Shown in pieces: positions 2,188-62,075 of a stretch of DNA of 64,000 nt; position 1 is the first letter of the stretch; every line of letters begins with the position of its first letter. Under the pieces are notes generated by a model. That model was not told where the DNA came from. It did no database searches and saw only the letters and a list, made by a program, of their open reading frames with translations. The translations under genes were made by a program, and so were the position numbers. The stretch comes from Candidatus Yanofskybacteria bacterium (GTDB taxonomy: Bacteria > Patescibacteriota > Minisyncoccia > 2-02-FULL-40-12 > GWA2-44-9), in contig JACPNL010000019.1 of assembly GCA_016185505.1 (NCBI GenBank), positions 2,885 to 66,884 on the forward strand. Reading direction: 5' to 3'.

Positions 2188-2237
2188 GTTGGCTGTTCGC
2201 CAATTAAAAAGCTACGCGAGCTGGGTTCAGACCGTCC

Positions 2238-3081: not shown

Positions 3082-3965
3082 AAGTATTGCTACTTCACGG
3101 AGTAATCCGTGATGACAACGCGACTAATAACGGTGGAATCTTAATATTTCTGGATCTGTTGATAGCCATAATTTCAATCGGTCCGTAAATTGTGGTACAA
3201 TTTACTTGAGGACCAGAAACTATTAAGACAATACCGTGGGAAGTCGATCTAAAATTGATCTAGCGTATATGGCCGGTTTTCTTGATGGAGACGGAAGCTT
3301 GATGTTCCAACTCAAGAAACGCAAAGACGGCAAAAAGAAATGGCGGTTTATGTGCACTGTCTGTTTTTATCAAGACAGCAGGCACGATAAGACACTTCAT
3401 TGGATAAGAAGCAAGCTAAATATTGGCTATGTGTCTAAACGCAATGATGGAATGTCAGAGTTGAGAGTAAATGGGTTTAAACAAATCCGAGATATTCTCA
3501 ATGACTTATTGCCATTTGTGAAGTTTAAAAGAGTCCAGGCAAATGCTATGCATAAAGCCACGACCCTTTTGAGCAAAAAGCATAGTGGTCAACTTAATAA
3601 AAATGAACTTATTAGATTAGTTGATTATATTCTAGAAATTCAGAAGAAGAACTATGTAACAAAACGCAAGAAAGGCAGAAAAGAGTTATTATCAATTTTG
3701 GGTTTGACCCCGTAACGACTTGTTCTCGCCAACGGCGGGACGGATAGAAGTTTTTTAGCTTCTATAATATGTCGCTGACCAATGGAGGTTGGAGATTAGA
3801 GATTGGATGTTGGATTTATTCTAACTTCTCATTTCTAACCTCTAACTTCCGTTGGTTAAAGATATAGTCTACACCCGTAGTGATACGGGATAATCAATTC
3901 GCAATTCGCGGCATTCGCATATCATTTGTAGATTTGCATTATGTTGCGAGCGGAGAGAGCATGTG
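3082..3965 (+). other. Group I intron 4 in 23S rRNA (at CCTAGTA^CGAGAGGACC) carrying a LAGLIDADG ORF
   Basis: Exon breaks at ~3081 and resumes at 3966 (ACGAGAGGACCGGG). Contains CGCGACTAATAACGGTGGAATC, CCCCGTAACGAC and a CTAACYTC repeat block at 3781-3860. Confidence 0.55.
3236..3715 (+). CDS. LAGLIDADG homing endonuclease (single-motif type)
   Basis: Motif LAYMAGFLDGDGSLMF. Starts directly after the conserved intron motif ATACCGTGGGAAGT (GTG start, or ATG at 3269). Confidence 0.7.
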   Translation: MGSRSKIDLAYMAGFLDGDGSLMFQLKKRKDGKKKWRFMCTVCFYQDSRHDKTLHWIRSKLNIGYVSKRNDGMSELRVNGFKQIRDILNDLLPFVKFKRVQANAMHKATTLLSKKHSGQLNKNELIRLVDYILEIQKKNYVTKRKKGRKELLSILGLTP

Positions 3966-4242
3966 ACGAGAGGACCGGGATGAACGAACCTCTGGTCTGC
4001 CAGCTGTTCTGCCAAGAGCAGCGCTGGGTAGCTATGTTTGGTTCTGATAAGCGCTGAAAGCATATAAGCGCGAAGCAGGCCTCAAGATTAGGTATCGGGA
4101 CGCAAGTCCCAAAATTTCCTTGTAGATGACGAGGTTGATAGGGCTTAGGTGTAAGCGCCGTGAGGCGTTGAGCCGAGAGCTACTAATAAATTTACTTTGA
4201 GTAATTTGTCGCTCCTCACTTTTGTTCGGAGCTCTTCCTACA

Positions 4243-4338
4243 AATTACGAATTTTTACAAATATACGAATGGGTTGAAAAATTTTAATTTAATCCTTCCT
4301 TCAGTATTCGTAAATTCGTACTGATTAGTAATTCGTAG
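4243..4338. repeat. TACGAAT / ATTCGTA repeat block in the 23S-5S spacer
   Basis: ATTACGAATTTTTACAAATATACGAATGGG ... TATTCGTAAATTCGTACTGATTAGTAATTCGTAG. The same motif family recurs at 23991, 28553 and 59885. Confidence 0.5.
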
Positions 4339-4460
4339 TAAAGGAGCCGCGAGCGGAAGCGAGGGGCGACGGGTGATTTCGGTATAAAATTAAGTTTTTT
4401 CCCCAAGAGTGAAACGAAGAGGGTGCGTTCCACCCCTTTCTGGAAAATAAAAATTATTGG

Positions 4461-6294: not shown

Positions 6295-7392
6295 ATGGCA
6301 AACTTTTCAAAAAACATAAGGTCTTATTTCCGCGAAGTAGATACTCCGCTCTTTATCGCAGTGGTAGCAATTTCTTTATTGGGTGCTTTGAATTTGTGGG
6401 GTATTGCCGGCGCCGATAGTTTGCTTTTTAAAAAACAACTCGTTTTTATTGCCATCGGCTTGACTGTAATGTTGGCGCTGTCTTTCTTTAACTACAGGTA
6501 TCTTAAGAATTATTCCTTGCCGGTGCTGGGCTTTTACTTCGTTTCCGTATTCTTATTGCTTTTGACTTTTTATTCCCAGTCGGTACGGGGAGTCAACTCT
6601 TGGATAATTTTGGGCAGTTTGACGTTCGAGCCGGTGGAATTGGCCAAGTTGATGTTGATCGTGTTGATGGCCAAGTACTTTTCCCAGAGACACGTTCATA
6701 TAAATGATTTCCGCCATATAGTCGTGGCCGGAATATATTTCTCTTTGCCTTTTGCTATAATCTTTCTTCAGCCGGATCTTGGTTCTTCCATTATATTCTT
6801 GGCTATCTGGCTGGGAATGCTTATGGCTGCCGGTATAAATAAGCGCCACTTGTTTCTGCTCGTCTCCGTCGGGGTTTTGGTAGGATATACAGCATGGCTG
6901 TTTGCTCTCCAGCCGTATCAGAAGACGAGGATAACGTCATTTCTGGATCCCTATAACGATCCAAAAGGGAGCGGTTATAATATCATTCAGTCAAAAATAG
7001 CGATCGGTTCCGGATATTTTTTCGGTAACGGTTTTGGCCAAGGTTCTCAAAGTAAGCATGGTTTCTTGCCGGAGCCACACAATGATTTCGCCTTTGCCGC
7101 CTTTACGGAGCAATTCGGCCTTATGGGCATAAGCGCGGTTATGGTGATGGTTCTAATCATCATTTCCCGTATTCTTTATATCGGGTCTAGAGTCATTTCT
7201 AATTTCGGTAAGCTTTTTTCCATAGGCCTTGCCGTGTTCATTGGCTCCCACGTATTCATAAGCGCCGGGGTCAACATAGGGTTGCTTCCGGTAACAGGGC
7301 TTTCCTTTTCGTTCTTAAGTTACGGCGGTAGCCACCTTTTGTCACTTATGGTAGGACTGGGAATACTACAGAGCATCAAACGTTATGGGTAA
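6295..7392 (+). CDS. ftsW: SEDS-family peptidoglycan glycosyltransferase FtsW/RodA
   Basis: 10-TM protein with the SEDS-family motifs LQPDLGS and GYNIIQSKIAIGSGYFFGNGFGQGSQSKHGFLPEPHNDFAFAAFTEQFGLMG. Confidence 0.85.
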   Translation: MANFSKNIRSYFREVDTPLFIAVVAISLLGALNLWGIAGADSLLFKKQLVFIAIGLTVMLALSFFNYRYLKNYSLPVLGFYFVSVFLLLLTFYSQSVRGVNSWIILGSLTFEPVELAKLMLIVLMAKYFSQRHVHINDFRHIVVAGIYFSLPFAIIFLQPDLGSSIIFLAIWLGMLMAAGINKRHLFLLVSVGVLVGYTAWLFALQPYQKTRITSFLDPYNDPKGSGYNIIQSKIAIGSGYFFGNGFGQGSQSKHGFLPEPHNDFAFAAFTEQFGLMGISAVMVMVLIIISRILYIGSRVISNFGKLFSIGLAVFIGSHVFISAGVNIGLLPVTGLSFSFLSYGGSHLLSLMVGLGILQSIKRYG

Positions 7393-11045: not shown

Positions 11046-11190
11046 TTTCAACCAATTCAACTAAATGTAAAATGCAAATATCAAAAATCAAAATGACAAT
11101 TCAAAATGTAAAGAATAATCAGAAATCAGAAAATTTTAAATTTTATACTGTCATTTTACACTTTGATTTTTAAATTTTAAATTTCTTATC
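11046..11190. repeat. AAAATGTAAAATGACA-family AT-rich inverted repeat element in the rpoB-rpoC spacer
   Basis: AAATGTAAAATGCAAATATCAAAAATCAAAATGACAATTCAAAATGTAAAG...TATACTGTCATTTTACACTTTGATTTTTAAATT. Related copies lie at 32043-32190 and, in frame, inside uvrC at 33541-33600. Confidence 0.5.
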
Positions 11191-14100
11191 GTGGATTTAT
11201 CCAGCATAAAACTTAAAATCGCGTCTCCCGAGGATATTTTGTCTTGGTCATACGGTGAGGTCACGAAGCCCGAGACCATCAACTACCGAACCCAGAAGCC
11301 GGAAAGGGAAGGTCTTTTTTCAGAGGCCATTTTCGGGCCGGTCAAGGATTGGGAATGCTATTGCGGAAAATATAAAAGGATAAGGTACAAGGGTATCATC
11401 TGCGACAGATGCGGTGTTGAGGTTACCAGATCCATAGTCAGACGAGAAAGAATGGGTCACATTAAACTGGCCGCGCCGGTGGCTCATATTTGGTTTCTGC
11501 GGGGCGTTCCTTCCAAGATAGCCACCGTTTTAGGCGCCAGTTTACAGGAACTTGAAAAGGTCGTCTACTTCGCGAGCTATATAATAATGAAAGCGAATGA
11601 AGACCTGAAAGCGGAAGCGATGAAAAGGATTGAGAACGAGTTTAAGACAAAGATCAAGAATTCTAAAAATGAAGCCGAACAAGAGAGTCTGAAAGAACAA
11701 AAAGATAGGGAGAAGAATAATTTAAGGAATTTAAGAAAATATCAGATTGTTTCGGAGCTTGATTTCCGCGACCTGTCTCTAAAATACGGGGAGGTGTTTG
11801 AGGCGGGCATAGGCGCGGAGGCGATAAAGCGTTTGCTTGAAGAGATAAACTTCGAAGACCTTGTTGCCGAAATAGAAAGCGAAGTAAAAAGCGAATCGAA
11901 TCCATTAGAGCAAAGAAAGCTGACAAGACGCTTGAGATTCATAAAAGGAATGAAGAAAGCGGAGATAAGGCCCGAGTGGATGATTTTGAGCACATTGCCG
12001 GTCATCCCCCCCGCTTTGAGGCCGATGGTACCTCTGGACGGTGGCCGCTACGCGACGTCAGATCTTAATGACCTATACAGGAGGGTGATCAACAGAAACA
12101 ACCGCTTGAAGCATTTGCTCGAACTTAAGGCTCCGGAAGTCATTACAAAGAACGAAAAGAGAATGCTTCAGGAGTCGGTTGACGCTCTTATAGACAATGC
12201 AATGAGAAGGGGGGGAGGAGTTACTACTGCTGCTTCAACGGGGCAGAAAAGGGCGCTCCGCTCTCTTGCCGATATGTTAAAAGGCAAACAGGGAAGATTC
12301 AGGCAGAACTTGCTTGGAAAACGAGTTGATTACTCCGGTCGTTCGGTTATCGTTATTGGTCCGGAACTTGGTATTGCCGAGTGCGGTCTTCCCAAAAGAA
12401 TGGCTTTGGAACTTTTCAAGCCGTTCGTGATAGGGATTTTGATAAGAAAAGAATTGGCTCACAACATTAAATCGGCGAGCCGTCTGATAGAGCAGGAAAC
12501 ACCGGATGTCTGGACGGCATTGGAAGAAGCGATGGAAGGCAAGCTGGTATTGCTCAATCGCGCGCCGACATTGCATCGTCTGTCTGTTCAGGCATTTAAG
12601 CCGACACTAATAGAAGGTAAAGCGATCAAAATTCCCGCTATGCCCGTGCATGCTTTTAATGCTGACTTTGATGGTGACCAGATGGCGGTTCACTTGCCGC
12701 TTACGAACGAAGCTCAAAAAGAAGCCAAGGACTTGATGCTATCCAGCCACGGCATACTGAAGCCGGCCACGGGCGAACCCGTCGCTATACCGAGCCACGA
12801 TATGTCATTTGGAATTTATTTTATTACTAATATGCTTGAGAACGCCAAAGGCGAAGGCAAGATATTTTCTTCCCGGTATGAAGCGCTTCTTGCTCATGAG
12901 AACGAGTTTATTGATCTTCGGGCAAAGATAAAAATACCGAACCCCGACTATAAAGAGCCAGGCGACAGAGATTCCCGGCTCCGCACGGGAACCTTATCCG
13001 AGCAAGGTTCACGCCGAGGAACTTCGGCGGGAATCGCCTCAGGTAGCGACGCGGAGAAGATCATTGAGACAACCGTAGGCCGCGTAATATTCAACAAAAT
13101 ATTGCCTAAGGAATTTCGATATGTGAATAAAACCCTCACTAAACCCGACTTAAAAGCTATCAGCTCCGATATATGGGACGAATACGGCGAGGAAGTAATG
13201 GTGGATTTCTTAGACAAAGTTAAAAACCTTGGCTTTCACTATGCAACGGTATCCGGCGTCTCCTGGAGTATGAGTGATTTGAGAGTTCCTCAAGAAAAGC
13301 AGCAAATCATAGAAGAGGCCGACAGGGTTATAGAAGAGAACAGGCACTTGTACGAGAACGGCTTGTTGACAGACCATGAAAGAAAGTCAAAAGCGATTGA
13401 AGTATGGAACAATGCTAAAGCCAAACTTTCTGCGTTGGTAAAAAAAGAGTTGGCTATTCAGGACCCGGTTTATATGATAGTTGATTCCAGGGCCAGAGGC
13501 AGTTGGGGGCCAATCGACCAAATGATGGGCATGAGAGGTATCGTGGTTAATCCTTCAGGTGAACTCATAGAACTGCCTATCAGGAATTCTTTGAAAGAAG
13601 GGATGACATCTCTTGAGTACTTCATTTCTACTCACGGCGCCAGAAAAGGTCTAGTGGACACGGCTCTCAAAACAGCCGAGGCCGGCTACCTCACCCGTAA
13701 ATTGGTTGATGTGGCGCAAAGCGTGGTTGTGCTGGAAGATGATTGTAAAGATAAAGAAGGATATGTGGTTTACGCTGAAGACAAAAAAATAAACGGGGAA
13801 ACACTGGGCCGTCGTTTGAAAGGTCGGGTAGTGATGGAGGACTTAATAGATAAGAATGGCGAAGTTATCGTAAAAAAGGGTAAAATGGTTGACAAAGAAG
13901 CCGCGGTCAAAATAGATGAAGCCGGGATAGACCAAGCGAGGATAAGATCTCTTGTAAGATGTAAGGCGCTTAATGGTGTTTGTCGTATGTGTTATGGCCA
14001 CGATCTGTCAAAGGGCGAACTTATAAATATCGGAGAGGCCGTCGGTATTGTCACCGCGCAAGCGATCGGAGAGCCGGGGACCCAGCTTACAATGAGAACG

Positions 14101-14844: not shown

Positions 14845-15086
14845 TCGCTCAAGCCAGCTCAGGGAAGCTCAGCTTCCTCAGCTGGCTCAATCCCACCCCC
14901 ATTTGCCGGCCTATTGGTTACGTCCTTCATCCGGCGTTTTGTAACTGTTCAAGGATCAATAGCTCCACAGAGAAGCTTTCACGAGCCCCCACACTAGTGT
15001 GGGGCAAGTAATATCTGTGGAGCTTTTCTTTTCTTGATTTAAGGTTTTAATACTATATACTTAATACTATATACTTAATACCAATA

Positions 15087-17318: not shown

Positions 17319-17562
17319 GGGGAGTGAGACCGTCAATTAATTTTTAACATTGAAATCCTTTAACAAATCCTTTGATATTTGTTCATAATGCGGATAAAAA
17401 TTCAGCAACCGTTCCTCCCTCCCCAGTTTCAGAAAACTGGGGAGGGATTTTCCGGCTAAATTTTTATTTCCGCCTGCTGGTGGACCGCATTATCTCTCAA
17501 ATATCTTAGTATTTGTGCCAAAGGATTTCAGTTGCTAAAAATTAATTGACGGTCTCACTCCC
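17318..17562. repeat. Long imperfect inverted repeat (~75-bp arms, ~80% complementary) around a central hairpin; MITE-like element or giant hairpin
   Basis: Left arm GGGGGAGTGAGACCGTCAATTAATTTTTAACATTGAAATCC...ATAATGCGG. Right arm CCGCATTATCTC...GTTGCTAAAAATTAATTGACGGTCTCACTCCC. The centre holds the stem CTCCCCAGTTTTCAGAAAACTGGGGAG. Confidence 0.5.
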
Positions 17563-17612
17563 TGGATGTTTTGTGTGGTTTTGAAAATCGACTGTTCCCT
17601 TAGTTTTACTTT

Positions 17613-21014: not shown

Positions 21015-21117
21015 ACGCTTACGCTAGTACCGCTGAGTTAACGCTGATTTTTACGCTGATTCGACGCTGACTATCAGCGACTTATCGGCGTACCTATCAG
21101 CGACCCATCAGCGGTCT
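21015..21117. promoter_or_regulatory. rpsF-ssb intergenic array of CGCTGAT / ATCAGCG repeats (candidate operator)
   Basis: On the top strand there are 4x ACGCTGA(T/C) and then 3x ATCAGCG(A/G) in inverted orientation: TACGCTGA, AACGCTGAT, TACGCTGAT, GACGCTGAC, TATCAGCGA, TATCAGCGA, CATCAGCGG. Confidence 0.4.
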
Positions 21118-22829: not shown

Positions 22830-24248
22830 ATGTCTAACATATTTCGAGCATACGATGTAAGGGGAGTTTATCCCGACGAACTGAATGAAGAAATTGCGGG
22901 CAAAATTGCCGCTGCTGCGGTTAAATTTTTGAATGCTAAAAAACTGGTAGTAGGGGAGGATGCCAGAATTTCTTCGCCGACGATAAGGGACAAGGTTTTA
23001 AGGGGTATTGTTGCGGCTGGCTGCGATGTTCATTATATCGGCCGATGTACAACTCCGCTTTTTTATTTTTCGGTCAATAACCTTGATGTTGATGGTGGAA
23101 TTATGATTACCGCTTCTCACAATCCACCCGAATATAACGGTCTTAAAATAGTAGGCAAAAAATCAAAGCCGATAAGCGGAGATTCAGGATTAAAAGAAAT
23201 TGAGAAACTGATAGAAATTAAGCCAATAAAGCCCCGTGGGCCACTGGCCTTTACGGGGAAATTAAGCGGACTTCGCAAGTCCATTGGACTTGCGAAGTCG
23301 TTAATCAAAGAAATATCGCTTAACAAAGAATATGTAGATTTTCTGCTCAGCGAATCAAAGGATATTCCCGATAATGGCAAAGATCTCAAAATAGTGATAG
23401 ATGCGTCCAATGGCATGACACCGCTTGTGCTGAATGAACTTTTGCCAAGAACAAAACTCAATGTTTCGCCTTTGTACTTTCAAATAGACGGTACGTTTCC
23501 CAATCATTTGTCCGATACTTCCCGTGAAGAGAACTTGAAAGACCTGAAAGACAAAGTTATTGCCGAAAAAACAGATGTCGGTATCGCCTTTGACGGAGAC
23601 GGTGACCGGATGGCTGTAGTGGATGAAAAAGGAAATATTGTAAGGGCGGATATAGTCGCCGGCCTGATATACAAACATTTTTATGACGGCGATAGGGTTG
23701 TATATGACTCTAGGTTTTCAAGAGCGGTCAGAGATATTTTTGGAGCCAGCGGTATAGCAACAAGGACTGGCCATTCTTTTGGCAAAACAGCAATGAAACA
23801 GAATGATGCCGCTTTCGGCGGAGAGCTTTCCGGCCACTTCTTTTTTAAGGAAATGCTTTACGCCGATGCGGCGATATTGGCGATGCTTCGGCTTGTGGAA
23901 ATGTTGGCAACAGAGAACAAGCCATTATCCCAACTAGTTGCTCCTCTGCTTATCTATGCCAATTCGGGGGAGATAAATATACCACTACCAATTACGAATC
24001 AGTACGAATATACAAATCTACAAATAAAAATTTTAGAAATGTTAAAAAATAAATATCGAGACGGTAAACAGAGTTTTTTGGACGGGATTACGGTAGAGTA
24101 CTGGGACCCCGACGCTCCGGTCGGGACAGGCTGGTGGTTCAATGTGAGATTCTCCAACACAGAACCGATAGTGAGAGTCGTTGTTGAAGCAGATACACAA
24201 GAATTAATGGAAGAAAAAGTTAAAGAAATAACTCAACTTTTACAGTAG
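22830..24248 (+). CDS. Phosphomannomutase / phosphoglucomutase family protein
   Basis: Active-site ITASHNPPEYNGLK and Mg-binding FDGDGDR. Carries an in-frame TACGAAT-family repeat at 23991-24025. Confidence 0.85.
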   Translation: MSNIFRAYDVRGVYPDELNEEIAGKIAAAAVKFLNAKKLVVGEDARISSPTIRDKVLRGIVAAGCDVHYIGRCTTPLFYFSVNNLDVDGGIMITASHNPPEYNGLKIVGKKSKPISGDSGLKEIEKLIEIKPIKPRGPLAFTGKLSGLRKSIGLAKSLIKEISLNKEYVDFLLSESKDIPDNGKDLKIVIDASNGMTPLVLNELLPRTKLNVSPLYFQIDGTFPNHLSDTSREENLKDLKDKVIAEKTDVGIAFDGDGDRMAVVDEKGNIVRADIVAGLIYKHFYDGDRVVYDSRFSRAVRDIFGASGIATRTGHSFGKTAMKQNDAAFGGELSGHFFFKEMLYADAAILAMLRLVEMLATENKPLSQLVAPLLIYANSGEINIPLPITNQYEYTNLQIKILEMLKNKYRDGKQSFLDGITVEYWDPDAPVGTGWWFNVRFSNTEPIVRVVVEADTQELMEEKVKEITQLLQ

Positions 24249-25298
24249 CCCCATTTTCTCTTTCACTTCAGTGAGGGTTTTGTCGGCGAGTTGTCGGGCT
24301 TTTTCTTCAGATGACTCAAGTATTTGGATAACTTTCTTTGGGTCATCTTCAAACTCCTTTCTTTTTGCCTGAAACGGTTGGAGGAAATTAACTACGACTT
24401 CGGCCAGGTCATTTTTGAAGTCAACGTAGGATTTGCTTTCGTATTGGTTTTCTATTTCCTTAATACTTAATACTTGCTTCTTAATACTATCTTGGGAAAG
24501 TAGGTGATAGATGGTGAGCAAATTTGAAATTGCCGGCTTTTCTTTCTCGTCGTATTTAACTTCTTTGTCGGAGTCGGTAACGGCTTTCTTTGTTTTTGCT
24601 CGAATAATATCCGGAGTATCAACAAGGAAAATACAACTTTCGTCTCCCGCTTGTCCTGAGCTTGCCGAAGGGGTTTTAGACATCTTCTGTGTCGGATCTT
24701 TGAGCGACATTATGCGGGCACCCTCTGCTAAATGCGGCTTTACTGGCTCAAACACCTCACCAAACATAGAATTGAATTTCTTGGCGATTTCATTGGTTAG
24801 ATCTATGTGGGGTAACTGATCTTCACCGACGGGGACGAGATTTGATTTATAAATCAAAATATCGGCCGCCATTAAAACCGGGTAATCTAACAAGCCCACA
24901 TGATTATATTTAGGCGCTTTGGCTAGCTGTTCCTTATATGTTGGCAGGCGGTCTAACCAACTGACCGGCGTAACCGTATTGAAAAGCCACGCGAGTTCCG
25001 TGTGTTGGGGGACTTTTGACTGGCGGATTAGCAATGCTTTGTCGGGGTCAATTCCCGCGGCGAGATAATCCAAAACCACATCCATTATCTGCTGTTGGTA
25101 TGTCTTGGGATCGTAAGGGGTAGTGATTGCGTGGTAGTCAGCAACCATAAAAATTACCTGTGCGGGCTTTGCTGTGCCCTCCGAAGCTTTATGCGAAGGA
25201 GGGTCCTGCAATTCCATCCAATTCTTTATCGCCCCGAGATAATTGCCAAGATGTAATTTCCCGCTCGGACGGATGCCCGAAAATACTTTTAATTTCAT
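24240..25298 (-). CDS. trpS: Tryptophan--tRNA ligase
   Basis: Class I HIGH-type motif (GKLHLGNYLG) and a KMSKT motif, with typical TrpRS N-terminus and length. Contains a small low-complexity insertion, SASSGQAGDES. Confidence 0.85.
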   Translation of the reverse strand: MKLKVFSGIRPSGKLHLGNYLGAIKNWMELQDPPSHKASEGTAKPAQVIFMVADYHAITTPYDPKTYQQQIMDVVLDYLAAGIDPDKALLIRQSKVPQHTELAWLFNTVTPVSWLDRLPTYKEQLAKAPKYNHVGLLDYPVLMAADILIYKSNLVPVGEDQLPHIDLTNEIAKKFNSMFGEVFEPVKPHLAEGARIMSLKDPTQKMSKTPSASSGQAGDESCIFLVDTPDIIRAKTKKAVTDSDKEVKYDEKEKPAISNLLTIYHLLSQDSIKKQVLSIKEIENQYESKSYVDFKNDLAEVVVNFLQPFQAKRKEFEDDPKKVIQILESSEEKARQLADKTLTEVKEKMGLL

Positions 25299-25788: not shown

Positions 25789-25880
25789 CTCTCTATGCAC
25801 ACAGTATACTAGCGGGCAACTAAGCTCGCTTTTGTTTTTTATTATTCGCTACTCCGCCTCACTACCTACCATATTTGCTA

Positions 25881-25914
25881 TTACACAAATTTATCATATG
25901 ATAAATTTGTGTAA
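25881..25914. repeat. 34-bp perfect palindrome TTACACAAATTTATCAT|ATGATAAATTTGTGTAA
   Basis: Exact reverse-complement symmetry. A near-identical 42-bp perfect palindrome, CTTATTACACAAACTAATCAT|ATGATTAGTTTGTGTAATAAG, lies at 26539-26580 on the other side of the ORF at 26051. Confidence 0.6.
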
Positions 25915-26050
25915 TCAAAAAAGAGATGAAAAGAAAACAAGTTTTTGCAAATAAACTTCTTAAGGTCCTTGTTGTCGGAGGAGAGTAGTTACTATCGCGG
26001 CAGTTAACCCGTTCTTCGGTCTTCTGGCTGCTAAGGTAATTGAAGAGGAG

Positions 26051-26500
26051 TTGAAAAAGAGAAAGTGGCAAAGATTTAGACGGGACTTATATTACTTAAA
26101 GCGTCGGGGCTTTATTGAAGCTAATCAAAATCTAGACGGTTCCTATTTGGTAAGGGTTACTTCTACCGGAAAGCGGCAGGCCAGGAAATACGAGTTGGAT
26201 GATATTGTCATAAAGAGTCCTAAAAGGTGGGACAAGCAATGGCGGTTAGTAATGTTTGATATTCCAGTTGTCAAACAAAAAGGAAGATTGGCTCTGTTGT
26301 CTAAATTGAAAAATCTTGGATTTATAATGCTTCAGAAAAGTATTTGGACGCATCCTTTTGAATGTCAGAACGAAGTCGCTGTTTTGGCTAGGGCTTTTGA
26401 GGTTGATAAGTACGTTCACCAACTTACTTGTGATAATATTTCAGCAAGAGAATATTTAAAGAATGAGTTTGAAAAAAGAAACAACACAAAATTGAGTTAA
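26051..26500 (+). CDS. wHTH plus Cas2/VapD-like-fold protein (PaaX-like architecture?), hypothetical
   Basis: N-terminal winged-helix-like region (LYYLKRRGFIEANQNLDGSYLVRVTSTGKRQARKY), then WRLVMFDIP...GRLALLSKLKNLGFIMLQKSIWTHPFE, which resembles the Cas2 beta1 / loop / GxxxQxSVF pattern. Confidence 0.45.
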   Translation: MKKRKWQRFRRDLYYLKRRGFIEANQNLDGSYLVRVTSTGKRQARKYELDDIVIKSPKRWDKQWRLVMFDIPVVKQKGRLALLSKLKNLGFIMLQKSIWTHPFECQNEVAVLARAFEVDKYVHQLTCDNISAREYLKNEFEKRNNTKLS

Positions 26501-26538: not shown

Positions 26539-26580
26539 CTTATTACACAAACTAATCATATGATTAGTTTGTGTAATAAG
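26539..26580. repeat. 42-bp perfect palindrome, partner of the one at 25881
   Basis: CTTATTACACAAACTAATCATATGATTAGTTTGTGTAATAAG. Confidence 0.6.
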
Positions 26581-28552: not shown

Positions 28553-28605
28553 TAATTACGAATGCAAGTACGAATATACGAATTGTAAATTCGATAACTT
28601 TGTAT
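28553..28605. repeat. TACGAAT-family repeat immediately upstream of the rnj start
   Basis: ATTACGAATGCAAGTACGAATATACGAATTGTAAATTCGATAAC. Confidence 0.5.
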
Positions 28606-28623: not shown

Positions 28624-28710
28624 TGGTGCCCAGGGGGAGATTTGAACTCCCACGGGATTGCTCCCATACGGCCCTGAACCGTACATGTATACCAGTTCCA
28701 TCACCTGGGC
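28624..28710 (-). tRNA. tRNA-Leu (anticodon CAG)
   Basis: The reverse complement GCCCAGGTGATGGAACTGGTATACATGTACGGTTCAGGGCCGTATGGGAGCAATCCCGTGGGAGTTCAAATCTCCCCCTGGGCACCA folds as a type II tRNA: 7-bp acceptor, TTCAGGG anticodon loop, long variable arm, CCA encoded. Confidence 0.85.
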
Positions 28711-29814: not shown

Positions 29815-29816
29815 AA

Positions 29817-29957
29817 AATTATTCTAATTATTCTAATTGCTCTAATTATTCTAAATAATACCCAATATCTAATTTCTGAATGTCTAAAAAATATTTAGTC
29901 ATTTAGTCATTAGGATTTATTTAGGTCAATTAGGTTAATTAGAATAATTAGGTTAAT
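29817..29957. repeat. Dispersed palindromic intergenic element (TAATTATTCTAATT family), copy 2
   Basis: ATTCTAATTATTCTAATTGCTCTAATTATTCTAAATAATACCCAATATCTAA...GTCATTAGGATTTATTTAGGTCAATTAGGTTAATTAGAATAATTAGG. Confidence 0.6.
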
Positions 29958-32042: not shown

Positions 32043-32190
32043 AGTCGGCTTAATTAAAAATGTAAAAATCAAAATGTAAAATGACAGTTTAAAATGTCAA
32101 AATTGTTTTTCATTCTCGGGAACATTTTTTAATTTTGCATTGTAATTTTTCATTTTGATATTTAAATTTTACATTAAAGTTCGTGAGCTA
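32043..32190. repeat. AAAATGTAAAATGACA-family AT-rich repeat element
   Basis: AAAAATGTAAAAATCAAAATGTAAAATGACAGTTTAAAATGTCAAAATTG...TTTTGCATTGTAATTTTTCATTTTGATATTTAAATTTTACATT. Confidence 0.5.
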
Positions 32191-32553: not shown

Positions 32554-33981
32554 TTATGATAGCGCTTTTTGGTGACGGTGTCTATAATAAGCTATTGCGA
32601 ACCGATGAGCTTCGGCATCAATATGGAGGATTAAATTGCGGACATCGGCCGGGAGTTTTGACAAAGAGATCGAATTTTTATTGCCGGCTACATAAATTTT
32701 ACTACCTCGGTGTCTCTCGTCCTTGGTTAAGGCAATGATCCCAAGATATTGGTTAATTGTTAATTGTAAGTTGTCAATTATTGAACGCGCCGCGTTCAAC
32801 TGCGCTTTTCCGCCATCTATTAATATCAAGTCAGGCAATGGCCACTCCGGATGGCTAAATCGGCGAGAGAGTATTTCTTTAAGCATACCAGTATCTCCTC
32901 CTACTGCGCTACCCGCTACTGCGCTACTGCGCTGTTTGATTTTGAATTTCCTGTACCCGCTCTTACTTGGTTTTCTGTTTACAAATACCGCCATTGCTCC
33001 AACGGCGTATTTGCCTTGAATATTAGCCACATCATAACCCTCAATGCGGTGCGGTACGTTTGACAGCTTAAATACCCTCCTTATTTGTTTCAAAGTATCC
33101 TTGTATTGATATTTTGATATATCAATAGATTTTATAATTTGAGCATTTTCAAAGACGTGCTTTATTTTTTCTATTTTGTTGCGTAATTCGATCGCTTCTT
33201 CGAACTCTTCTTTCCGGCCTAAAGCAATCATTTCTTTTTCCAGTTTTTTAAGCAGAGATGTCTTCTTGCCATTTAGGATATCTTTTATTGCCTTTACGTT
33301 TTTCTGGTAACGATTCTTTAATTCTACGAAATTATCATATGATAATTTCGTAGAACGATTTAATATATTCGTGGTTTTCAAGCAACAAATGCCGGGGCAC
33401 TTGCCTATATGATAGTTCAAGCAGAAGTTATTGTGGGGTTTCTTGCAAGTGCAGTAGGGGAATATTCTTCGCAGGTAGAGCAGAGTCGTCTTTAGTGCTC
33501 CAATATCTGTAAATGGTCCGATAAATTCGGCTTTAAAATTTTTACATTTTGAATTGTCATTTTGCATTTTGATTTTTGCATTTTGATTTTTTGTTGGCTG
33601 ATGTGTGATAAATATTTTGGGGTATGTTTCTTTTGTAAAGCCGACAAAGCCGAACTGCTTGTCGTCGCGGAGCATTATATTGAACGCTGGCTTGTATCTT
33701 TTTATGTACTGCGATTCCAATATCAGGGCCTCAATTTCGGAGTCGGTTTCAATGGTCTTAATTCTTTTTGCCAGGGAAACCATTTTCTGGAGCCGTGTAT
33801 CCGCGGTTTTTACATATTGCTTGATTCGATTTTTCAGATTTGACGCTTTGCCGATGTACAAATTCAGACCCGAAATATTTTTGAATAAATACACGCCGGG
33901 CTTAGCGGGTATTTTCCGCATTAATTTTATAAGATGGCTGCTTGTCATGATTAGGGCAATATTATAATATGTTTTTAGCAA
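32554..33981 (-). CDS. uvrC: UvrC-like excinuclease (shortened) carrying two in-frame repeat insertions
   Basis: GIY-YIG N-terminal (PGVYLFKNISGLNLYIGKASNLKNRI), Cys-rich CTCKKPHNNFCLNYHIGKCPGIC, and endonuclease-domain LILIDGGKAQLNAA. At 475 aa it lacks the usual C-terminal HhH region. In-frame repeats lie at 33541-33600 (AAAATG family) and ~32890-32940 (GCTACTGCG tandem). Confidence 0.8.
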   Translation of the reverse strand: MLKTYYNIALIMTSSHLIKLMRKIPAKPGVYLFKNISGLNLYIGKASNLKNRIKQYVKTADTRLQKMVSLAKRIKTIETDSEIEALILESQYIKRYKPAFNIMLRDDKQFGFVGFTKETYPKIFITHQPTKNQNAKIKMQNDNSKCKNFKAEFIGPFTDIGALKTTLLYLRRIFPYCTCKKPHNNFCLNYHIGKCPGICCLKTTNILNRSTKLSYDNFVELKNRYQKNVKAIKDILNGKKTSLLKKLEKEMIALGRKEEFEEAIELRNKIEKIKHVFENAQIIKSIDISKYQYKDTLKQIRRVFKLSNVPHRIEGYDVANIQGKYAVGAMAVFVNRKPSKSGYRKFKIKQRSSAVAGSAVGGDTGMLKEILSRRFSHPEWPLPDLILIDGGKAQLNAARSIIDNLQLTINQYLGIIALTKDERHRGSKIYVAGNKNSISLSKLPADVRNLILHIDAEAHRFAIAYYRHRHQKALS

Positions 33982-43685: not shown

Positions 43686-43801
43686 ACGACTTGCGAAGTC
43701 GTTTATCCACAGGTTGCTTTGTAATGTCGTTACGCTGTGTTGATTTCTCTTTGGATTGTGGTAGCGTTGGATAAAGTTCATTAACTACAAGAGGCAAAAT
43801 A

Positions 43802-46103: not shown

Positions 46104-47994
<1,891 letters not shown>

Positions 47995-48037
47995 AAACTA
48001 AAAAATAAAGTAATTTAGAAATTGAGAAATAAAGACT

Positions 48038-48080
48038 CAAAACACGGCCACCAAGCCGTGTTTTGAGTTTAAATTTTTTT
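48038..48080 (+). terminator. Rho-independent terminator after groEL
   Basis: CAAAACACGGCCACCAAGCCGTGTTTTGAGTTTAAATTTTTTT. Confidence 0.6.
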
Positions 48081-48176
48081 GTTGCAATATTTACACGATC
48101 GTTGAATTATTGCAACTTACATCATTCTCATATTCTTGAGAATATGAGAATGATGTAAGGAGGGTCAAGGGTGTTC

Positions 48177-48204
48177 TTGACACATTTATTTGGTCCTGTA
48201 TAGT
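48177..48204 (+). promoter_or_regulatory. Putative promoter TTGACA-N16-TATAGT for the lipoprotein gene
   Basis: TTGACACATTTATTTGGTCCTGTATAGT. Confidence 0.4.
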
Positions 48205-48242
48205 TAAACTACTTCCTTGAAAACGTACAAAAAGGGCTAAAA

Positions 48243-48614
48243 ATGACCAGAACAAAAGCGCTTCTGTCTCTTGTTGTTATTTTGCTTGCAAGTTCGTTGA
48301 TTGTAACGGGATGCTCTACTAAACCAGTAGATGCCAGCACTGTTCTCACGCCACATCGTACAAGCGTTTATTTTGTTGTTGATAGGCCAAATGGCTTCGT
48401 GGCCTATGCGCCAGAGGGTTCTGTCTTTGTCAACATAAAAATTCAGCCAGATATTACTGAACCATACGTTGAAGTTCCAAGGACGCGGATTAATACTGAT
48501 TATTCCTCGAAGTTGTTGGATGGTACATATGTGGCTTGGATTTACGGTGGCACATTGTACGTGAAAGATTTAGAGCAGTTTAAGGGTCTTCTTTTGAAAG
48601 CCGAGCGTGAGTAA
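48243..48614 (+). CDS. Small lipoprotein, hypothetical
   Basis: Signal peptide plus the lipobox LIVTGCS. Flanked by the 43-bp direct repeat GTTTAAATTTTTTTGTTGCAATATTTACACGATCGTTGAATTA (48066-48108 and 48630-48672). Confidence 0.5.
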   Translation: MTRTKALLSLVVILLASSLIVTGCSTKPVDASTVLTPHRTSVYFVVDRPNGFVAYAPEGSVFVNIKIQPDITEPYVEVPRTRINTDYSSKLLDGTYVAWIYGGTLYVKDLEQFKGLLLKAERE

Positions 48615-48881
48615 CTCGCGCTTTTTTGTTTAAATTTTTTTGTTGCAATATTTACACGATCGTTGAATTAGTATCAACAGCCCACTTCCTGGCCGGGTTG
48701 TTGAAGGGACGTTGACATAAAGTTGTCCATAGATTATAATCCATACATAATATGGCTGACATATTTAAAAACGCCATAAACAGCGCTAAAACGCGTTTTA
48801 AAACCCACAAAATAGCCAACAATCTATAATCTAAAGAGCGGCGTTATCGCCGCTCTTTAGATTTGTGTTATTGTAATAATA

Positions 48882-50570
48882 ATGGAAACAAAATTTATCT
48901 TTGTGGCAGGCGGAGTGATGTCCGGAGTTGGGAAAGGCGTAGCCGTTGCTTCAATTGCTAAGATTTTACAAGCCAGAGGGCTGGAGACGACTGCGGTTAA
49001 AATAGATCCCTATGTCAATGTGGATGCCGGCACCATGAATCCTACCGAACACGGCGAGGTTTTTGTTTTAGACGACGGAATGGAGTGTGATCAGGATATG
49101 GGCAACTATGAGCGGTTCTTGGGGCGGAACTTGTCGAGCAAAAACTATATGACCACCGGCAGTATTTATCTTGATGTCATTAATCGTGAACGAAATCTAG
49201 ATTATGGCGGCAAATGTGTTGAGGTGGTTCCCCAGATCCCGCTGTTTATTATAGAAAAAATAAAAAGGGCGGCAAAAACAAATCGTGCAAAAGTCGTTAT
49301 TGTGGAGATAGGCGGGACCGTCGGAGAATATCAGAACATTTTGTTTTTGGAGGCTGTCCGTATGTTGAAAATAAAACAGCCGGATGATGTGGCGCTGGTA
49401 TTAGTCAGTATGCTTCCGGTTCTTGAAGCCGGCGGCACGGAGTTGAAAACAAAACCTACTCAATATGCCGTCAGAACCTTAAACGCCGCTGGTTTGCAGC
49501 CGGATATTATCTTAGCTCGGGGCAGTGTTCCGGTTGACGACAGCAGAAAAGAAAAACTGGCGTTAAATTGCAATCTTCGGAGGGAAGATATTATCTCTGC
49601 CCCGAATGTTAAAAATATTTATGAAATTCCGCTGAACTTTGAAAAAGACCGGCTTAGTGATTTATTGCTTAAAAAATTAAAACTAAAAGCAAAGAAAAAA
49701 GATTTTAGGAAATGGAAAAAGTTTATTCATAAATCAAACAACCCAACAAAAAAAGTCAGAATAGGCATTGTGGGGAAATATTTTAATTCTGGGGACTTTG
49801 TACTGACGGATTCTTATCTCTCTGTTTTGGAAGCGGTGAAGCATGCCGCATGGTCCTTAAGGGCAGATCCGGAGATAACATGGCTTAATGCCGAGAGTTA
49901 TGAAAATAATCCGACATCTTTGGAAGAACTGAAAAATTTCGACGGGATCATCGTGCCAGGGGGATTCGGTAAAAGGGGAGTTGAAGGCAAGATCGCCGCT
50001 ATCAAGTATGTCCGGGAAAATAACATTCCTTTTCTCGGGTTATGCTATGGACTGCAGTTGGCAGTCGTGGAATTTGCCCGCGATATCTGTGGATTAAAGG
50101 AGGCGCATACCACCGAAATTGACCCCGAAACGCCAAAGCCGGTAATCTGTACGATGCCGGATCAGCTGGTGAATATTAAAAAAAAGCAAATGGGCGGCTC
50201 AATGCGCCTCGGTGCATACAAGTGTAAATTGCACCCAAAATCTATAAGCTATAAACTTTATACTACAAGCCATCCCTCGACTTTGCTTGGGACAGGCAAG
50301 CTAACTCCTAATCTCCTAACTCCTAACTTCCTAATTAGCGAACGCCATCGTCATCGCTACGAAGTGAACAACCATTACCGCTTGAAGTTGGAAAAAGGAG
50401 GGATGCTTATCGCCGGTCTTAACCCCCAAAGAGAACTGATTGAAATTATAGAAATTCCGGAGCATAAATTCTTTGTTGCCACTCAATTTCATCCGGAGTT
50501 CAAGTCCCGGCCGTTATCGCCACACCCGTTGTTTGTGGGTCTTATCAAAGCGGCATCGGAAATTAAATAA
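48882..50570 (+). CDS. pyrG: CTP synthase
   Basis: N-terminal synthetase domain (FVAGGVMSGVGKGV) plus a GATase domain (GLCYGLQ, HPEF). An in-frame CTCCTAA-type repeat insertion lies at 50301-50336 (LTPNLLTPNFL). Confidence 0.9.
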   Translation: METKFIFVAGGVMSGVGKGVAVASIAKILQARGLETTAVKIDPYVNVDAGTMNPTEHGEVFVLDDGMECDQDMGNYERFLGRNLSSKNYMTTGSIYLDVINRERNLDYGGKCVEVVPQIPLFIIEKIKRAAKTNRAKVVIVEIGGTVGEYQNILFLEAVRMLKIKQPDDVALVLVSMLPVLEAGGTELKTKPTQYAVRTLNAAGLQPDIILARGSVPVDDSRKEKLALNCNLRREDIISAPNVKNIYEIPLNFEKDRLSDLLLKKLKLKAKKKDFRKWKKFIHKSNNPTKKVRIGIVGKYFNSGDFVLTDSYLSVLEAVKHAAWSLRADPEITWLNAESYENNPTSLEELKNFDGIIVPGGFGKRGVEGKIAAIKYVRENNIPFLGLCYGLQLAVVEFARDICGLKEAHTTEIDPETPKPVICTMPDQLVNIKKKQMGGSMRLGAYKCKLHPKSISYKLYTTSHPSTLLGTGKLTPNLLTPNFLISERHRHRYEVNNHYRLKLEKGGMLIAGLNPQRELIEIIEIPEHKFFVATQFHPEFKSRPLSPHPLFVGLIKAASEIK

Positions 50571-57429: not shown

Positions 57430-57469
57430 AAATTAAGAAATTCAGAAATAAAGACATTAAGTAATTAGT

Positions 57470-57535
57470 GAGGTCGAACCTCCCTCGGGAGGTTCGACCC
57501 CTAACCCTCGCTCTTGCGGGGGTTTTTAATTAATG
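57470..57535 (+). terminator. Tandem hairpin terminator
   Basis: GAGGTCGAACCTCCCTCGGGAGGTTCGACCCC followed by CCCTCGCTCTTGCGGGGGTTTTT. Confidence 0.5.
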
Positions 57536-57676
57536 AATTTTCCTATCATTATGATACGATGGTGTATCATAGTAAATGGGCAAGGCGACTTGCCCATTTA
57601 CTTTTAGCGAGATGTGGCGCGGGGTTGCTACCCATAAATTATTGGTATAGAGTTATGAAAAGTTCATTTACAAGGA

Positions 57677-59730: not shown

Positions 59731-59884
59731 AGAAATTTAGATATTAAGATATTAAGAAATTCCCTGCGGGGAATTTTTTCTGGACATTTTTTATGCATTG
59801 GTATATAATTGAATAACATTTAAATATTCAGGCATCTCAAAGGGACCAAAAGTCCTTTATAATAAATACTTTCTTAAGTATTAG

Positions 59885-59913
59885 TATATTCGCACAAATT
59901 CGTAATTCGTAGA
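59885..59913. repeat. TACGAAT-family repeat immediately upstream of dnaG
   Basis: GTATATTCGCACAAATTCGTAATTCGTAG. Confidence 0.45.
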
Positions 59914-59914: not shown

Positions 59915-61968
59915 ATGGATAATGTTTCTAAAATTAAGGATCGCTTAAGCGTGGTTGATGTCATTTCCGGGTACCTGAAACTCCAAAAAGCCGGAGCGAA
60001 TTTCAAGGCCTCTTGTCCTTTTCACAACGAAAAAACGCCATCGTTTTTCATATCTCCCGAACGCCAGACGTGGAAGTGTTTTGGTTGTTCCAAGGGTGGT
60101 TCGATCTTCGATTTTGTAATGGAGATGGAGGGGGTTGAGTTTCCCGAGGCATTGAGAATACTTGCCGCAAAGGCAGGCATAGAACTGGAAAAGTTTGACT
60201 CTACCATCAAGGACTCAAAAGATCGCCTCTATCAAATATGCGAGTCATCAGCCCGGTTTTTCGAAAAGCAATTAAGCTATTCCGGCGCGGGCCGACGAGC
60301 TATTGAATATTTGAAAAGCAGAGGGCTCCAGGAGACAACGATGGCAAAATTCCGTCTTGGGTTCGCGCCCGATACATGGGATGCATTGAGCGGATATTTA
60401 CGCAATTCTGGTTTTACTGAAAAAGAGATAGTGGATGCGGGAGTAGTGGTCAAAAGACAACCAACAACCAACAACCAACAACAGGGATCTACGACAGGTT
60501 TCGTTCGCGCATAATGTTTCCTGTTTCGGATGCTAACGGCAGGGTTGTGGGGTTCACTGGCCGCATCTTTGAAGACAAGGTCCCGACGCGCGAAGTGGTC
60601 GGGACCCCGACTTCTGATTTTGATCAAGCCACAAAGGGGCTCGACAACAGTCAGAGCGTCGTGGCCAAATATATCAATACCCCGCAGACGCTTATCTATG
60701 ACAAAAGCAGGATACTTTACGGCCTTGACCATTCCCGAACCGACATCAGAAAAAAGGATAAATGTCTTCTTGTAGAAGGCAATATGGACGCCATCATGTC
60801 TTATCAGGCTGGTGTGACGCACGTGGTTGCTTCATCGGGAACCGCTCTTACGCCGATGCATCTTGCCATCCTGAAAAGATTTACTAACAATCTGGACTTC
60901 TGCTTTGATACGGATTCTGCCGGAGTGATGGCGACCAAAAGGGGTATAGCAATAGCGCTCGGACAGGATTTTAACGTCAAGGCGGTCTCACTTGACGACC
61001 CCGTAAAATCGTCTAAAGACGATCACGGGGCAAGATGCAAGGACCCCGCTGATTATATTCAGAGGTACGGAAGCAACCTCGCCGCTTCGGGTCCCGGAGT
61101 GGGATCCCAAGCACTCCTTGGGAACTCTGTCGGGGCAAGCTGGATAGAAGTGGTTGAAAAAGCGAAGCCGGTCGTGGAATTCTACTTTGATAAAGCCAAA
61201 GAAAGTTATAATCCCGAATCGGCGGAAAGTAAAAAGAATGTCATCTTGACCGTTGCTCCTTTCGTCAAGCGGCTTGTCAGCAACGTGGAGAGAACTCACT
61301 GGGTGAACCAGTTGGCGTATCTGCTTCGTGTGAAAGAAGAGGCCGTTGAGGCAGATATAAGGGATGCTCCTGATATTGATGTTGGCTATGTTGGAAGTGT
61401 TCGAAACGTTGGAAATGACAACTCGAACAACTCGAACAAGCCAGCAGGCGATCAAACAAGCGAAGCAGGGTACAGTCCTGTACCCCGCGAAGCGGTCGAA
61501 CAAGTGTTGAACGAGGCTCTATTATCCCTTGTTGTTAAAAAACCGGTATTATTCAAACAAGAAATCATGACGCTTGATAAAAGTTTTTTAAACCCGTTGG
61601 CATCACAAGTTCTTGATGAGTTGGCGAAGGAAGACCTGGAGCAATTCAATTTCAGCAATTTCATAAAAAAATTCGATTCGGATCCCGAACAACAGCAAGT
61701 TGTATACGGGGCAGGTAAAACACTTGATGTAGAATTTGTTTATCTAAGATCGCAAGCATTGTGGGACGATTTCAAAGATGACGAACTTAAAATGGAATTT
61801 AAAAATATATTCAATAAATTAAAACAAAAAACGATCCATTTGCGTCTTGCCGATCTCGGGTACGAAATGAGAGCGGCAGAAGCGGTTGGAGATAGAGCAA
61901 AGATAGGCGAACTCGCGTCGGTGTTTAATAAGTTGGCGGGGGAGTTGGCGGAGATACACAAAATTTAA
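59915..61968 (+). CDS. dnaG: DNA primase DnaG, split into two ORFs by an apparent frameshift inside a CAACCAA repeat
   Basis: ORF 59915-60514 gives the CHC2 zinc finger (CPFHNEKTPSF...WKCFGC). ORF 60514-61968 gives TOPRIM (LLVEGNMDAIMSYQAG) and the C-domain. The conserved IYDRFRSRIMFPVSD motif reads through from frame 1 at 60487, so the shift lies within CAACCAACAACCAACAACCAACAACAG (60457-60486). Confidence 0.7.
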
Positions 61969-62075
61969 ATCAAATATCAAATATCAAAAATCAAAACGAC
62001 AAATCAAAATTCAAAATTTCTAATCTTTCATATGTATTTCTAATCTTTGATATTTAATTTTTAATTTATATAATC

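Follow-up and report, generated by a model that had tools for sequence, protein, structure and literature searches.

How does repetitive intergenic DNA come to lie, in frame, inside a conserved gene? The question is raised by uvrC in a 64-kb stretch of a metagenome-assembled genome (MAG) of Candidatus Yanofskybacteria, a member of the Candidate Phyla Radiation (CPR, Patescibacteria). This whole stretch, whose GC content is about 44%, is called the window below. A sequence-only reading of it had claimed that an AAAATG-type element of the intergenic spacers recurs on the uvrC coding strand, where it is translated in frame as ...TKNQNAKIKMQNDNSKCKNFKAE..., and that this behaviour resembles that of Rickettsia palindromic elements (RPEs). 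The uvrC segment at 33537-33591 represents a discrete dispersed unit of about 53 nucleotides (nt), present in full and referred to here as the QNDN unit. It codes for QNAKIKMQNDNSKCKNFK, placed between THQPTKN and (A)EFIGPF, and the insert measures 54 nt, a whole number of codons, which corresponds to 18 residues. The frame and the translation are as that reading had given them.

The recurrence is far stronger than expected by chance. The pattern AAAATGYAAAATGACA, with up to two mismatches, finds five matches in the window against 0.16 expected. In a repeat search, 11069-11112 is 93% complementary to 33541-33584 over 44 nt, and 32052-32104 is 87% complementary to 33537-33589 over 53 nt; self-BLAST of the uvrC copy against these two spacer copies gives E = 1.4e-11 and 2e-10. 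Compared with all non-coding DNA of the window, the uvrC copy reaches a local-alignment score of 35, while 100 dinucleotide shuffles, the null for all such scores reported here, give 12.6±1.3 and none of them reaches 35 (0/100). Moreover, an nhmmer profile built from copies outside the window alone recovers 33537-33587 at 41.4 bits (E=1.8e-10), over profile positions 3-53, as the top-scoring copy of the window. The unit is a loose repeat in itself, with a period of 7 and just 73% matches in Tandem Repeats Finder (TRF), and the uvrC copy forms no hairpin of its own (dG -3.0, z=+1.1). An assembly artefact was considered and rejected, because the segment recurs, in frame, in independent assemblies (the NCBI MAG and two from ENA).

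A metagenome scan with the 20-nt core ATCAAAAWKCAAAATGACAA as the query matched at least 120 stretches, and 80 loci were examined. In nearly all matches listed, the flanks beyond the core are conserved as well. Across at least 86 distinct contexts, the information content rises at the 5' end from about 0 to more than 1 bit within 1-2 positions and decays at the 3' end within about 3 positions, giving a unit length of about 53 nt. The consensus, which carries no terminal inverted repeats in these contexts, is about AAATTCAAAATKYAAAAATCAAAAWKCAAAATGACAATKYAAAATTNAAAAAT and runs through seven and a half heptads, whose order is fixed; seven different heptads follow one another in identical order in Yanofskybacteria, Wolfebacteria and phage contigs. 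Sharp ends and a fixed heptad order therefore mark the unit as an element in its own right and not as a simple repeat without defined ends.

Most copies among the matches listed are intergenic, the genes on either side mainly having the same orientation; the median distance from the upstream stop codon to the start of the unit is 11 nt. In 32 of the 68 intergenic copies listed, a complementary T-rich copy follows 11-68 nt downstream, and such an inverted pair makes a hairpin of 110-140 nt. The window holds six arms of the unit in its 64 kb (Table 1). One host protein is annotated as Candidatus Wolfebacteria, and the unit is therefore common to distinct Parcubacteria lineages. Related copies are also present on twelve IMG/VR phage contigs (L209-L220) with 52-61% GC, which makes phages a possible route for horizontal spread. 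On one of these contigs (L218, 55% GC, with portal, capsid and adaptor genes), a copy at 6928-6947 directly follows the major capsid gene and precedes the adaptor gene, at a place where one would look for a terminator. Across the 1.25 Mb that surround uvrC in 80 GTDB species, the unit was found solely in one locus (L051), with a weak match in another (L009); this near-absence indicates a patchy distribution, not a phylum-wide one. Two genomes that share the uvrC insert, L001 and L002, have no intergenic QNDN copies in the 13-14 kb examined, and their spacers carry other 7-nt families. The phenomenon extends far beyond the window.

Within open reading frames (ORFs) of at least 100 codons, 20 copies occur among the matches listed, 19 of them in sense and one in antisense orientation. 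All 19 sense copies are read in one frame, (M/I)QN(A/S)KIK(M/N)QNDN(S)KFK, and in each of them the A-rich strand is the sense strand. One of the other two frames of this strand holds a TGA codon, and the T-rich strand codes for hydrophobic peptides. By Pfam, the hosts belong to at least 12 protein families. Copies well inside the ORF occur in UvrC (window, L001, L002), a PMM/PGM-family mutase (L083), a GT4 glycosyltransferase, a Mur ligase, the CCA-adding enzyme, TatD (two loci, at different positions), TilS, MnmA, Fpg, a YchF-like GTPase, MurB and a P-type ATPase. Others lie at ORF termini, in a release factor, the polymerase III gamma/tau subunit, a GT2 glycosyltransferase and four-helix-bundle proteins of the 23S rRNA intervening-sequence (IVS) type. 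Among the matches listed, no copy well inside an ORF has a complementary arm within 160 nt, and the QNDN peptide aligns to gaps in the solved MnmA and Fpg structures. In the single antisense copy (L110) it is the T-rich strand that is read, and it gives a 307-residue protein a hydrophobic N-terminus (ILHFALSFCILIFAFCI) that resembles a signal or anchor.

No transposase and no RAYT-like gene (REP-associated tyrosine transposase; REP, repetitive extragenic palindrome) was seen among 501 ORFs near the 80 copies, a few kb being sampled per locus, and Pfam searches of the small ORFs of the window found no transposase or mobilising gene. The IVS-type protein is the sole recurrent neighbour in this set. 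At eight loci (L117, L120, L133, L139, L146, L150, L155 and L159), the unit is fused to the N-terminus of such a protein (MQNDNxKFKNEFKKRLY...).

Comparison of orthologs shows that the QNDN segment in UvrC is an insert. In 120 orthologs, the stretch from P118 to G144 takes 34 distinct lengths between 3 and 57 residues; three control segments of the protein never change length. Many orthologs have a bare 7-residue loop at this place, termed site 1 (for example TKNQNFI), and there are orthologs reading THQPTKNQNFI without the unit. UvrC has at least five length-variable insertion sites, and at site 1 alone at least seven insert families occur across the 120 orthologs. These include QNDN, the 'SSAVV...TALxPTAL' and 'SLRASPAK' types, a TACGAAT-family insert (IRIYESVRMYEFV), the palindromic 'VSSIKYxVLRG...NTKYxIxNT' type in about 13 orthologs, and others. 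Several site-1 inserts of other species fold as strong hairpins (z from -3.5 to -7). In L012, a GC-rich palindrome of 71 nt forms the insert; it matches an intergenic copy at 90% identity and is nested in a second palindrome. Self-BLAST of 82 related loci showed that uvrC of 13 genomes shares short repeats with intergenic DNA or with other genes of the locus. Taken at the level of these alignments, the site-1 loop is a hot spot colonised by different repeat families across Patescibacteria.

Site 2 of uvrC holds a perfect palindrome of which both arms are translated (STKLSYDNFVE). At the same place, uvrC of L001 has a perfect 38-nt palindrome, and the differences between the two are compensatory double changes. 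The core AAAWTTAKCATATGMTAAWTTT, which both uvrC palindromes share, recurs in two related palindromes between genes of the window (25879-25915 and 26541-26577), which flank a PaaX/Cas2-like gene (26051-26500).

Within UvrC, the QNDN unit occupies the loop that links the GIY-YIG domain to the Cys-rich region. In an AlphaFold model of the window UvrC, based on the 120-sequence alignment (mean predicted local distance difference test, pLDDT, 84), all insert sites are low-confidence coil (blocks 121-140, 191-200, 271-280 and 341-350, with block values of 39-77), and the site-1 insert is coil at 54-69. Window UvrC keeps all invariant residues. The effect of the insert on the protein is most likely neutral, namely a disordered surface loop of 18 residues. 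Alignment to orthologs had been proposed as a check on the inserts, and in uvrC, the mutase and pyrG it reveals them as lineage-variable and absent from some orthologs, not as conserved native sequence. Their expected position in permissive segments is borne out by the low-pLDDT coil in UvrC and by gaps relative to solved UvrC, CTP synthase, PMM/PGM, Fpg and MnmA. UvrC proteins of this clade (window 32554-33948 and 120 orthologs) have 411-525 residues and end past the RNase H-like domain, and Pfam found no C-terminal helix-hairpin-helix domain. In L207, a reverse-transcriptase gene (11310-12347) adjoins uvrC; no link to the repeats was established.

The PMM/PGM-family mutase gene provides another in-frame copy, of the TACGAAT family. 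The sequence-only reading had placed this element of the 23S-5S spacer and of the rnj and dnaG leaders in the mutase, and the comparison agrees: 23984-24017 is 88% identical to 4306-4339 over 34 nt, and the mutase copy scores 22 against the non-coding DNA of the window, with shuffles at 10.1±1.1 and 0/100 reaching 22. In the 23S-5S spacer, TACGAAT clusters lie in both arms of a hairpin; others precede rnj (28557-28583) and dnaG (59898-59911). The corresponding peptide PLPITNQYEYTNLQ is found in some close mutase orthologs and in one that is 59% identical, and is absent from others at 64-68% identity. In the L083 mutase, a QNDN unit occupies the insert site of the TACGAAT unit, with 31 of 32 bases equal to window 11069-11100. 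A separate mutase insert of about 19 residues contains two small GC-rich palindromes, which resemble the hairpin at 43686-43707. At another locus (L086), a reverse-transcriptase gene (715-2125, bAvd plus RVT_1), similar to those of diversity-generating retroelements, directly adjoins the mutase; no link to the repeats was established here either.

Table 1. Window coordinates of the repeat units, arrays, palindromes, folded spacers and principal host genes.
Feature	Position	Strand	Remarks
UvrC gene	32554-33981	-	Pfam: GIY-YIG, UVR, RNase H-like domains
QNDN unit, complete, in frame, uvrC site 1	33537-33591	-	about 53 nt, A-rich, 7-nt period
Perfect 34-nt palindrome, uvrC site 2	33322-33355	-	1/100 shuffles
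(CTACTGCG)x4.2 array, uvrC site 4 (SAVAGSAVGG)	32901-32933	-	TRF period 8
(GTTAATT)x4 array, uvrC site 5 (NLQLTINQ)	32752-32779	-	
Hairpin, rpoB-rpoC spacer	11064-11183	+	A-rich unit 11064-11112, loop, inverted T-rich unit 11131-11183; 38.2 and 14.9 bits
Hairpin of inverted units, spacer between secG-like ORF and holin-like gene	32052-32175	+	units 32052-32104 and 32124-32175; z=-3.9
Degenerate unit with weak partner arm, dnaG-rpoD spacer	61969-62067	+	unit 61969-62019; 28.6 bits
PMM/PGM-family mutase gene	22830-24248		Pfam
TACGAAT-family unit in frame in mutase (PITNQYEYTNLQ)	23984-24025	+	7-10 residues beyond orthologs and solved structures
Two small GC-rich palindromes in mutase (GGACTTCGCAAGTCC, GGACTTGCGAAGTC)	23268-23300	+	1/100 shuffles
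TACGAAT hairpin, 23S-5S spacer	4238-4339	+	arms 4238-4289 and 4306-4339; z=-2.8
TACGAAT cluster, tRNA-Leu to rnj start	28555-28590	+	
TACGAAT-family copy upstream of dnaG	59861-59912	+	cluster 59898-59911
CTP synthase gene (pyrG)	48882-50570		Pfam
pyrG insert, tandemly duplicated 15-nt five-codon unit (LTPNL/LTPNF)	50284-50338	+	
Perfect (ACAACCA)x3.7 array splitting dnaG	60457-60482	+	TRF 100% matches
Strongly folding spacers (examples)	17319-17612, 21015-21117, 29815-29957, 46104-46359, 47995-48242, 57430-57676		

Other inserts look like products of local tandem duplication and not of copying from intergenic elements, to judge from their sequences: those of pyrG, uvrC sites 4 and 5, the tryptophanyl-tRNA synthetase (TrpRS) gene and dnaG. 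The pyrG insert adds about 20 residues beyond solved CTP synthases, is missing from orthologs 86-90% identical and occurs in 0, 1 or 2 copies among close orthologs. It is a real and recent insert, in frame as had been claimed, while its supposed link to a repeat of 23S intron 4 falls to chance level: the score against the non-coding DNA of the window, including the 23S intron, is 10, with shuffles at 9.9±1.0 and 63/100 doing as well, and the relation is not supported. The SAVAGSAVGG array of uvrC had also been predicted and is present, although with a period of 8 by TRF and not 9; it extends 7-8 residues beyond solved UvrC chains and has no intergenic counterpart in the window. For the TrpRS array at 24459-24488, a link to the spacer at 15047-15081 was considered and set aside as weak (6/100 shuffles), and the array looks like a local AGTATTA expansion. 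A TRF census with a score threshold of 30 across 83 loci proved too noisy as a statistic.

The perfect array in dnaG breaks the frame, so that we read frame preservation elsewhere as a product of selection and not as a property of the process. The gene is split into 59915-60514 (zinc ribbon and first part of DNAG_N) and 60514-61968 (rest of DNAG_N, Toprim and DnaB-binding). Compared with E. coli DnaG, the array accounts for about 8 extra residues; with one more 7-nt unit, the two ORFs would be back in frame. The split could reflect phase variation, a heterogeneous population collapsed in assembly, or a pseudogene.

The spacers of the window share this architecture of short units. TRF and repeat searches found them to be composed of degenerate units of 7-9 nt, mostly arranged as long inverted repeats, with families that include AATTATTCT, AGAAATTA, TTAATAC, CGAAATAT and others. 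Several of these reappear at distant loci at 85-98% identity (repeat search, self-BLAST and TRF). Among spacers of at least 70 nt, 17 of 31 fold much better than shuffles (z <= -3, lowest -15.6). Besides the 53-nt unit, TACGAAT, GTATTAAG and CATATG-palindrome families and a putative SSGQA family are distinguished. The SSGQA peptides (PSASSGQAG, AHSASSGQAKK and STSSGQAE) are short inserts that recur in different proteins and genomes (TrpRS 24240-25298; UvrC and mutase orthologs), and they point to a putative further repeat family that is richer in GC.

No Rfam family was found for the hairpins: the gathering scan of the window gave just rRNA, 5S and one tRNA. ARAGORN places a tRNA-Leu(CAG) at 28624-28710 (minus strand), which was unreported in that scan. 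In the 3' part of the 23S rRNA (window 1-4200), Rfam matches solely 1-448 and 3947-4193; the roughly 3.5 kb between them contain ORFs at 518-1153, 1422-2096 and 3236-3715 and internally repeated segments, an arrangement consistent with several introns. Elsewhere, 49-nt direct repeats at 48061-48109 and 48622-48670 (96% identical) bracket a 123-residue ORF (48243-48614) with no Pfam match, and the region resembles a spacer duplication or a small cassette.

What process would explain both the intergenic and the coding copies? Native low-complexity loops might have come to resemble intergenic DNA by AT-rich convergence, with no copying involved. Codons for Lys, Asn and Gln are A-rich, the empty uvrC loop already reads AAAAATCAAAAT, and convergence fits the chance-level likeness of pyrG to the 23S intron as well as uvrC sites 4 and 5 and the dnaG array. 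However, for uvrC site 1 and the mutase it is refuted by the shuffles, the sharp-ended unit and the independent profile, and the similarity in both is clearly better than AT-rich chance. It also leaves the fixed heptad order and sharp ends in at least 86 contexts unexplained, together with the 31/32 match of the L083 mutase, and GC-rich inserts such as that of L012 cannot be compositional; as an account of the locus, convergence is hardly credible. Replication slippage of 7-8-nt units in place, with similar arrays as independent products of one mutational bias, goes further. Arrays with periods of 7-9 are detected by TRF both between genes and inside ORFs, the pyrG copy number varies among close orthologs, the perfect 7-nt dnaG array breaks the frame, TrpRS has its AGTATTA expansion, and heptameric simple sequence repeats with inverted pairs and 7-32% intragenic copies are already known (PMC4692102). 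Yet the QNDN unit is not homogeneous: its seven different heptads keep one order across Yanofskybacteria, Wolfebacteria and phage contigs. This order, shared by uvrC, the mutase, MurB, Fpg and other hosts, excludes independent slippage as the full explanation, and in that role it is very improbable.

The unit might instead be a functional cis-element, such as an arm of an intrinsic terminator or processing hairpin or a protein-binding array, and the uvrC copy might be kept for a role at the DNA or RNA level. The position of the intergenic copies listed just past stop codons of mostly same-strand genes would suit such a role, and so would the well-folded spacers of the window and the copy between capsid and adaptor genes of a phage contig with 55% GC. 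The same can be said of the in-uvrC unit, 95% identical between genomes with saturated synonymous sites, and of the compensatory double changes between the site-2 palindromes of the window and L001. Against it stand the copies well inside ORFs that have no partner arm, including a uvrC copy that does not fold. These copies occupy unrelated positions in unrelated genes, always in loops and at no consistent distance from the gene ends, and no Rfam family matches. A cis-element as the whole explanation is therefore improbable, although it is less so than slippage.

The explanation that appears probable overall is a dispersed 53-nt unit, which forms hairpin pairs between genes and of which occasional ORF copies are kept where they are tolerated. 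Copies would now and then be pasted into coding DNA, where selection would retain those that keep the frame, bring no stop codon, encode a hydrophilic peptide and fall in a permissive loop. The neighbouring short arrays (pyrG, uvrC sites 4 and 5, dnaG) would arise by ordinary local tandem duplication. As to the copying itself, template switching primed by homology or microhomology, or ectopic conversion by another copy into A-rich runs of Lys, Asn and Gln codons, is a tentative first choice, rated somewhat short of an even chance; a trans-acting transposase of unknown type ranks second and is rather unlikely. Empty uvrC sites read ACAAAAAATCAAAAT followed by TTC, and ACAAAAAATCAAAAT equals the first 15 nt of the filled site. 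The slight lean to template switching or conversion comes from this identity, from the single arm, and from the lack of terminal inverted repeats, of a clear target-site duplication and of a transposase. AAAAT stands at both uvrC junctions and is not separable from the heptads of the unit itself or from microhomology.

Several points weigh against this explanation. That the uvrC insert is translated we infer solely from the intact frame. The empty-site sequence could be a deletion scar and not a seed. No fresh insertion with unambiguous junctions was found, the nearest UvrC ortholog being merely 59-64% identical. A second open frame exists, which is never used in the ORF copies among the matches listed. 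Finally, the units of the window and L001 are identical at 57 of 60 positions, while third-position identity at identical residues of the flanks is 0.38-0.56; such identity amid nearly saturated synonymous sites is not what neutral junk in a loop predicts. The two insertions occupy the same codon, with GCCGA after the unit in both, and look orthologous, and these copies are closer to each other than to the paralogous copies of the window. The family consensus is also constant across very divergent hosts. This conservation, the compensatory changes at site 2 and the constant consensus keep a functional or actively homogenised reading alive. In its fullest form, an actively maintained element would spread horizontally among Parcubacteria-type CPR and phages, as hairpin pairs after genes and single arms in loops, its sequence being held constant, in ORFs too and more strictly than the host gene itself requires, by a dedicated recognition or conversion system. 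This form is unlikely, though well short of negligible; if it were true, the loops full of repeats in CPR housekeeping proteins would record a process still under way throughout the lineage, not old debris.

To our knowledge, in-frame colonisation of essential genes by repeats has so far been treated as a near-unique oddity of Rickettsia, and no description of such elements in CPR, Patescibacteria or Parcubacteria was found in the open-access literature. Its presence in Patescibacteria marks it as a recurrent outcome in reduced genomes, with a scope in CPR that covers several families, conservation from Yanofskybacteria to Wolfebacteria, phage copies and hot spots shared across the phylum. In practice, the inserts lengthen and break up alignments of CPR marker proteins, can split genes (dnaG) and mislead gene callers at ORF ends, and can serve as natural strain-typing markers. 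Additionally, they offer a testable way into the question of how conserved proteins acquire new peptide segments, and into the origin of the structured CPR spacers.

The comparison with RPEs themselves sets both the likeness and its limits. In the account of PMC10969869, RPEs (RPE-1 to RPE-10; Ogata et al. 2000, 2002) are palindromes of about 100-150 bp that are translated over their whole length in ORFs. As described there, several dispersed short families in a small genome occur between genes and in frame in unrelated housekeeping genes, with a conserved family peptide in one frame and at fold-compatible sites; the repeats studied here share all of these features. Relative to that description, the unit differs in its 53 nt (a third of the length), its 7-nt period, its non-palindromic sequence and its single arm in ORFs. 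Its hairpins exist only as intergenic inverted pairs, its hosts are Patescibacteria and not Rickettsia, and its consensus is maintained among hosts with orthologous proteins of only 50-60% identity. Other families at the UvrC loops (L012, the 'VSSIKYxVLRG...NTKY' type and uvrC site 2) are true coding palindromes, unlike QNDN. The A-rich heptad consensus presumably bears no obvious relation to RPE-1 to RPE-10.

Repetitive extragenic palindromes and bacterial interspersed mosaic elements (REP/BIME) are imperfect palindromes of 20-40 nt with GTAG/CGTC tags, mobilised by RAYT and extragenic by definition. The QNDN unit resembles REP/BIME and SPRITE (named in PMC3733652 and PMC10969869) as a short unit past stop codons, single or in inverted hairpin pairs, with a possible role as terminator or mRNA stabiliser. 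It differs in that it is not self-palindromic, has no tag, is present in ORFs and has no RAYT seen nearby. In organelles, the GC clusters of yeast mitochondrial var1 and the palindromes of Volvox are hairpin repeats that spread between genes and are tolerated in frame; they are an analogy only, being organellar, GC-rich and of different structure.

Repeats of the miniature inverted-repeat transposable element (MITE) type (ERIC/RU, PMC2759123; QMITE1 and the Anabaena MITEs, cited in PMC10969869) are, in these accounts, small and non-coding, with occasional in-frame ORF fusions as here. The hallmarks of MITEs are terminal inverted repeats, target-site duplications and a parent insertion sequence; for the QNDN unit, no terminal inverted repeats, no unambiguous target-site duplication and no transposase were found. 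The tandem heptamers of cyanobacteria (Nostoc among them) and Xanthomonas, such as GGGAATC, GGGGAYT and the Calothrix heptanucleotides, share its 7-nt period, mostly intergenic position, some inverted pairs and an intragenic minority (PMC4692102). Those, however, repeat a single heptamer a variable number of times, a pattern seen in dnaG (ACAACCA, 100% matches) and approximately at uvrC site 5, whereas the QNDN unit is a fixed order of different heptads. The claim of RPE-like behaviour thus stands for dispersed families with in-frame copies in at least 12 protein families, and it gives way where it implied a palindromic QNDN copy in uvrC or a pyrG link above chance. The word 'selfish', like 'mobile', would be an inference: neither a transposase nor terminal inverted repeats were found, and no target-site duplication is unambiguous. 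The analogy is apt for uvrC and the mutase; the uvrC copy, a non-folding single arm, lacks the palindrome that is one of the defining features of an RPE, and the QNDN unit behaves like an RPE without being one.

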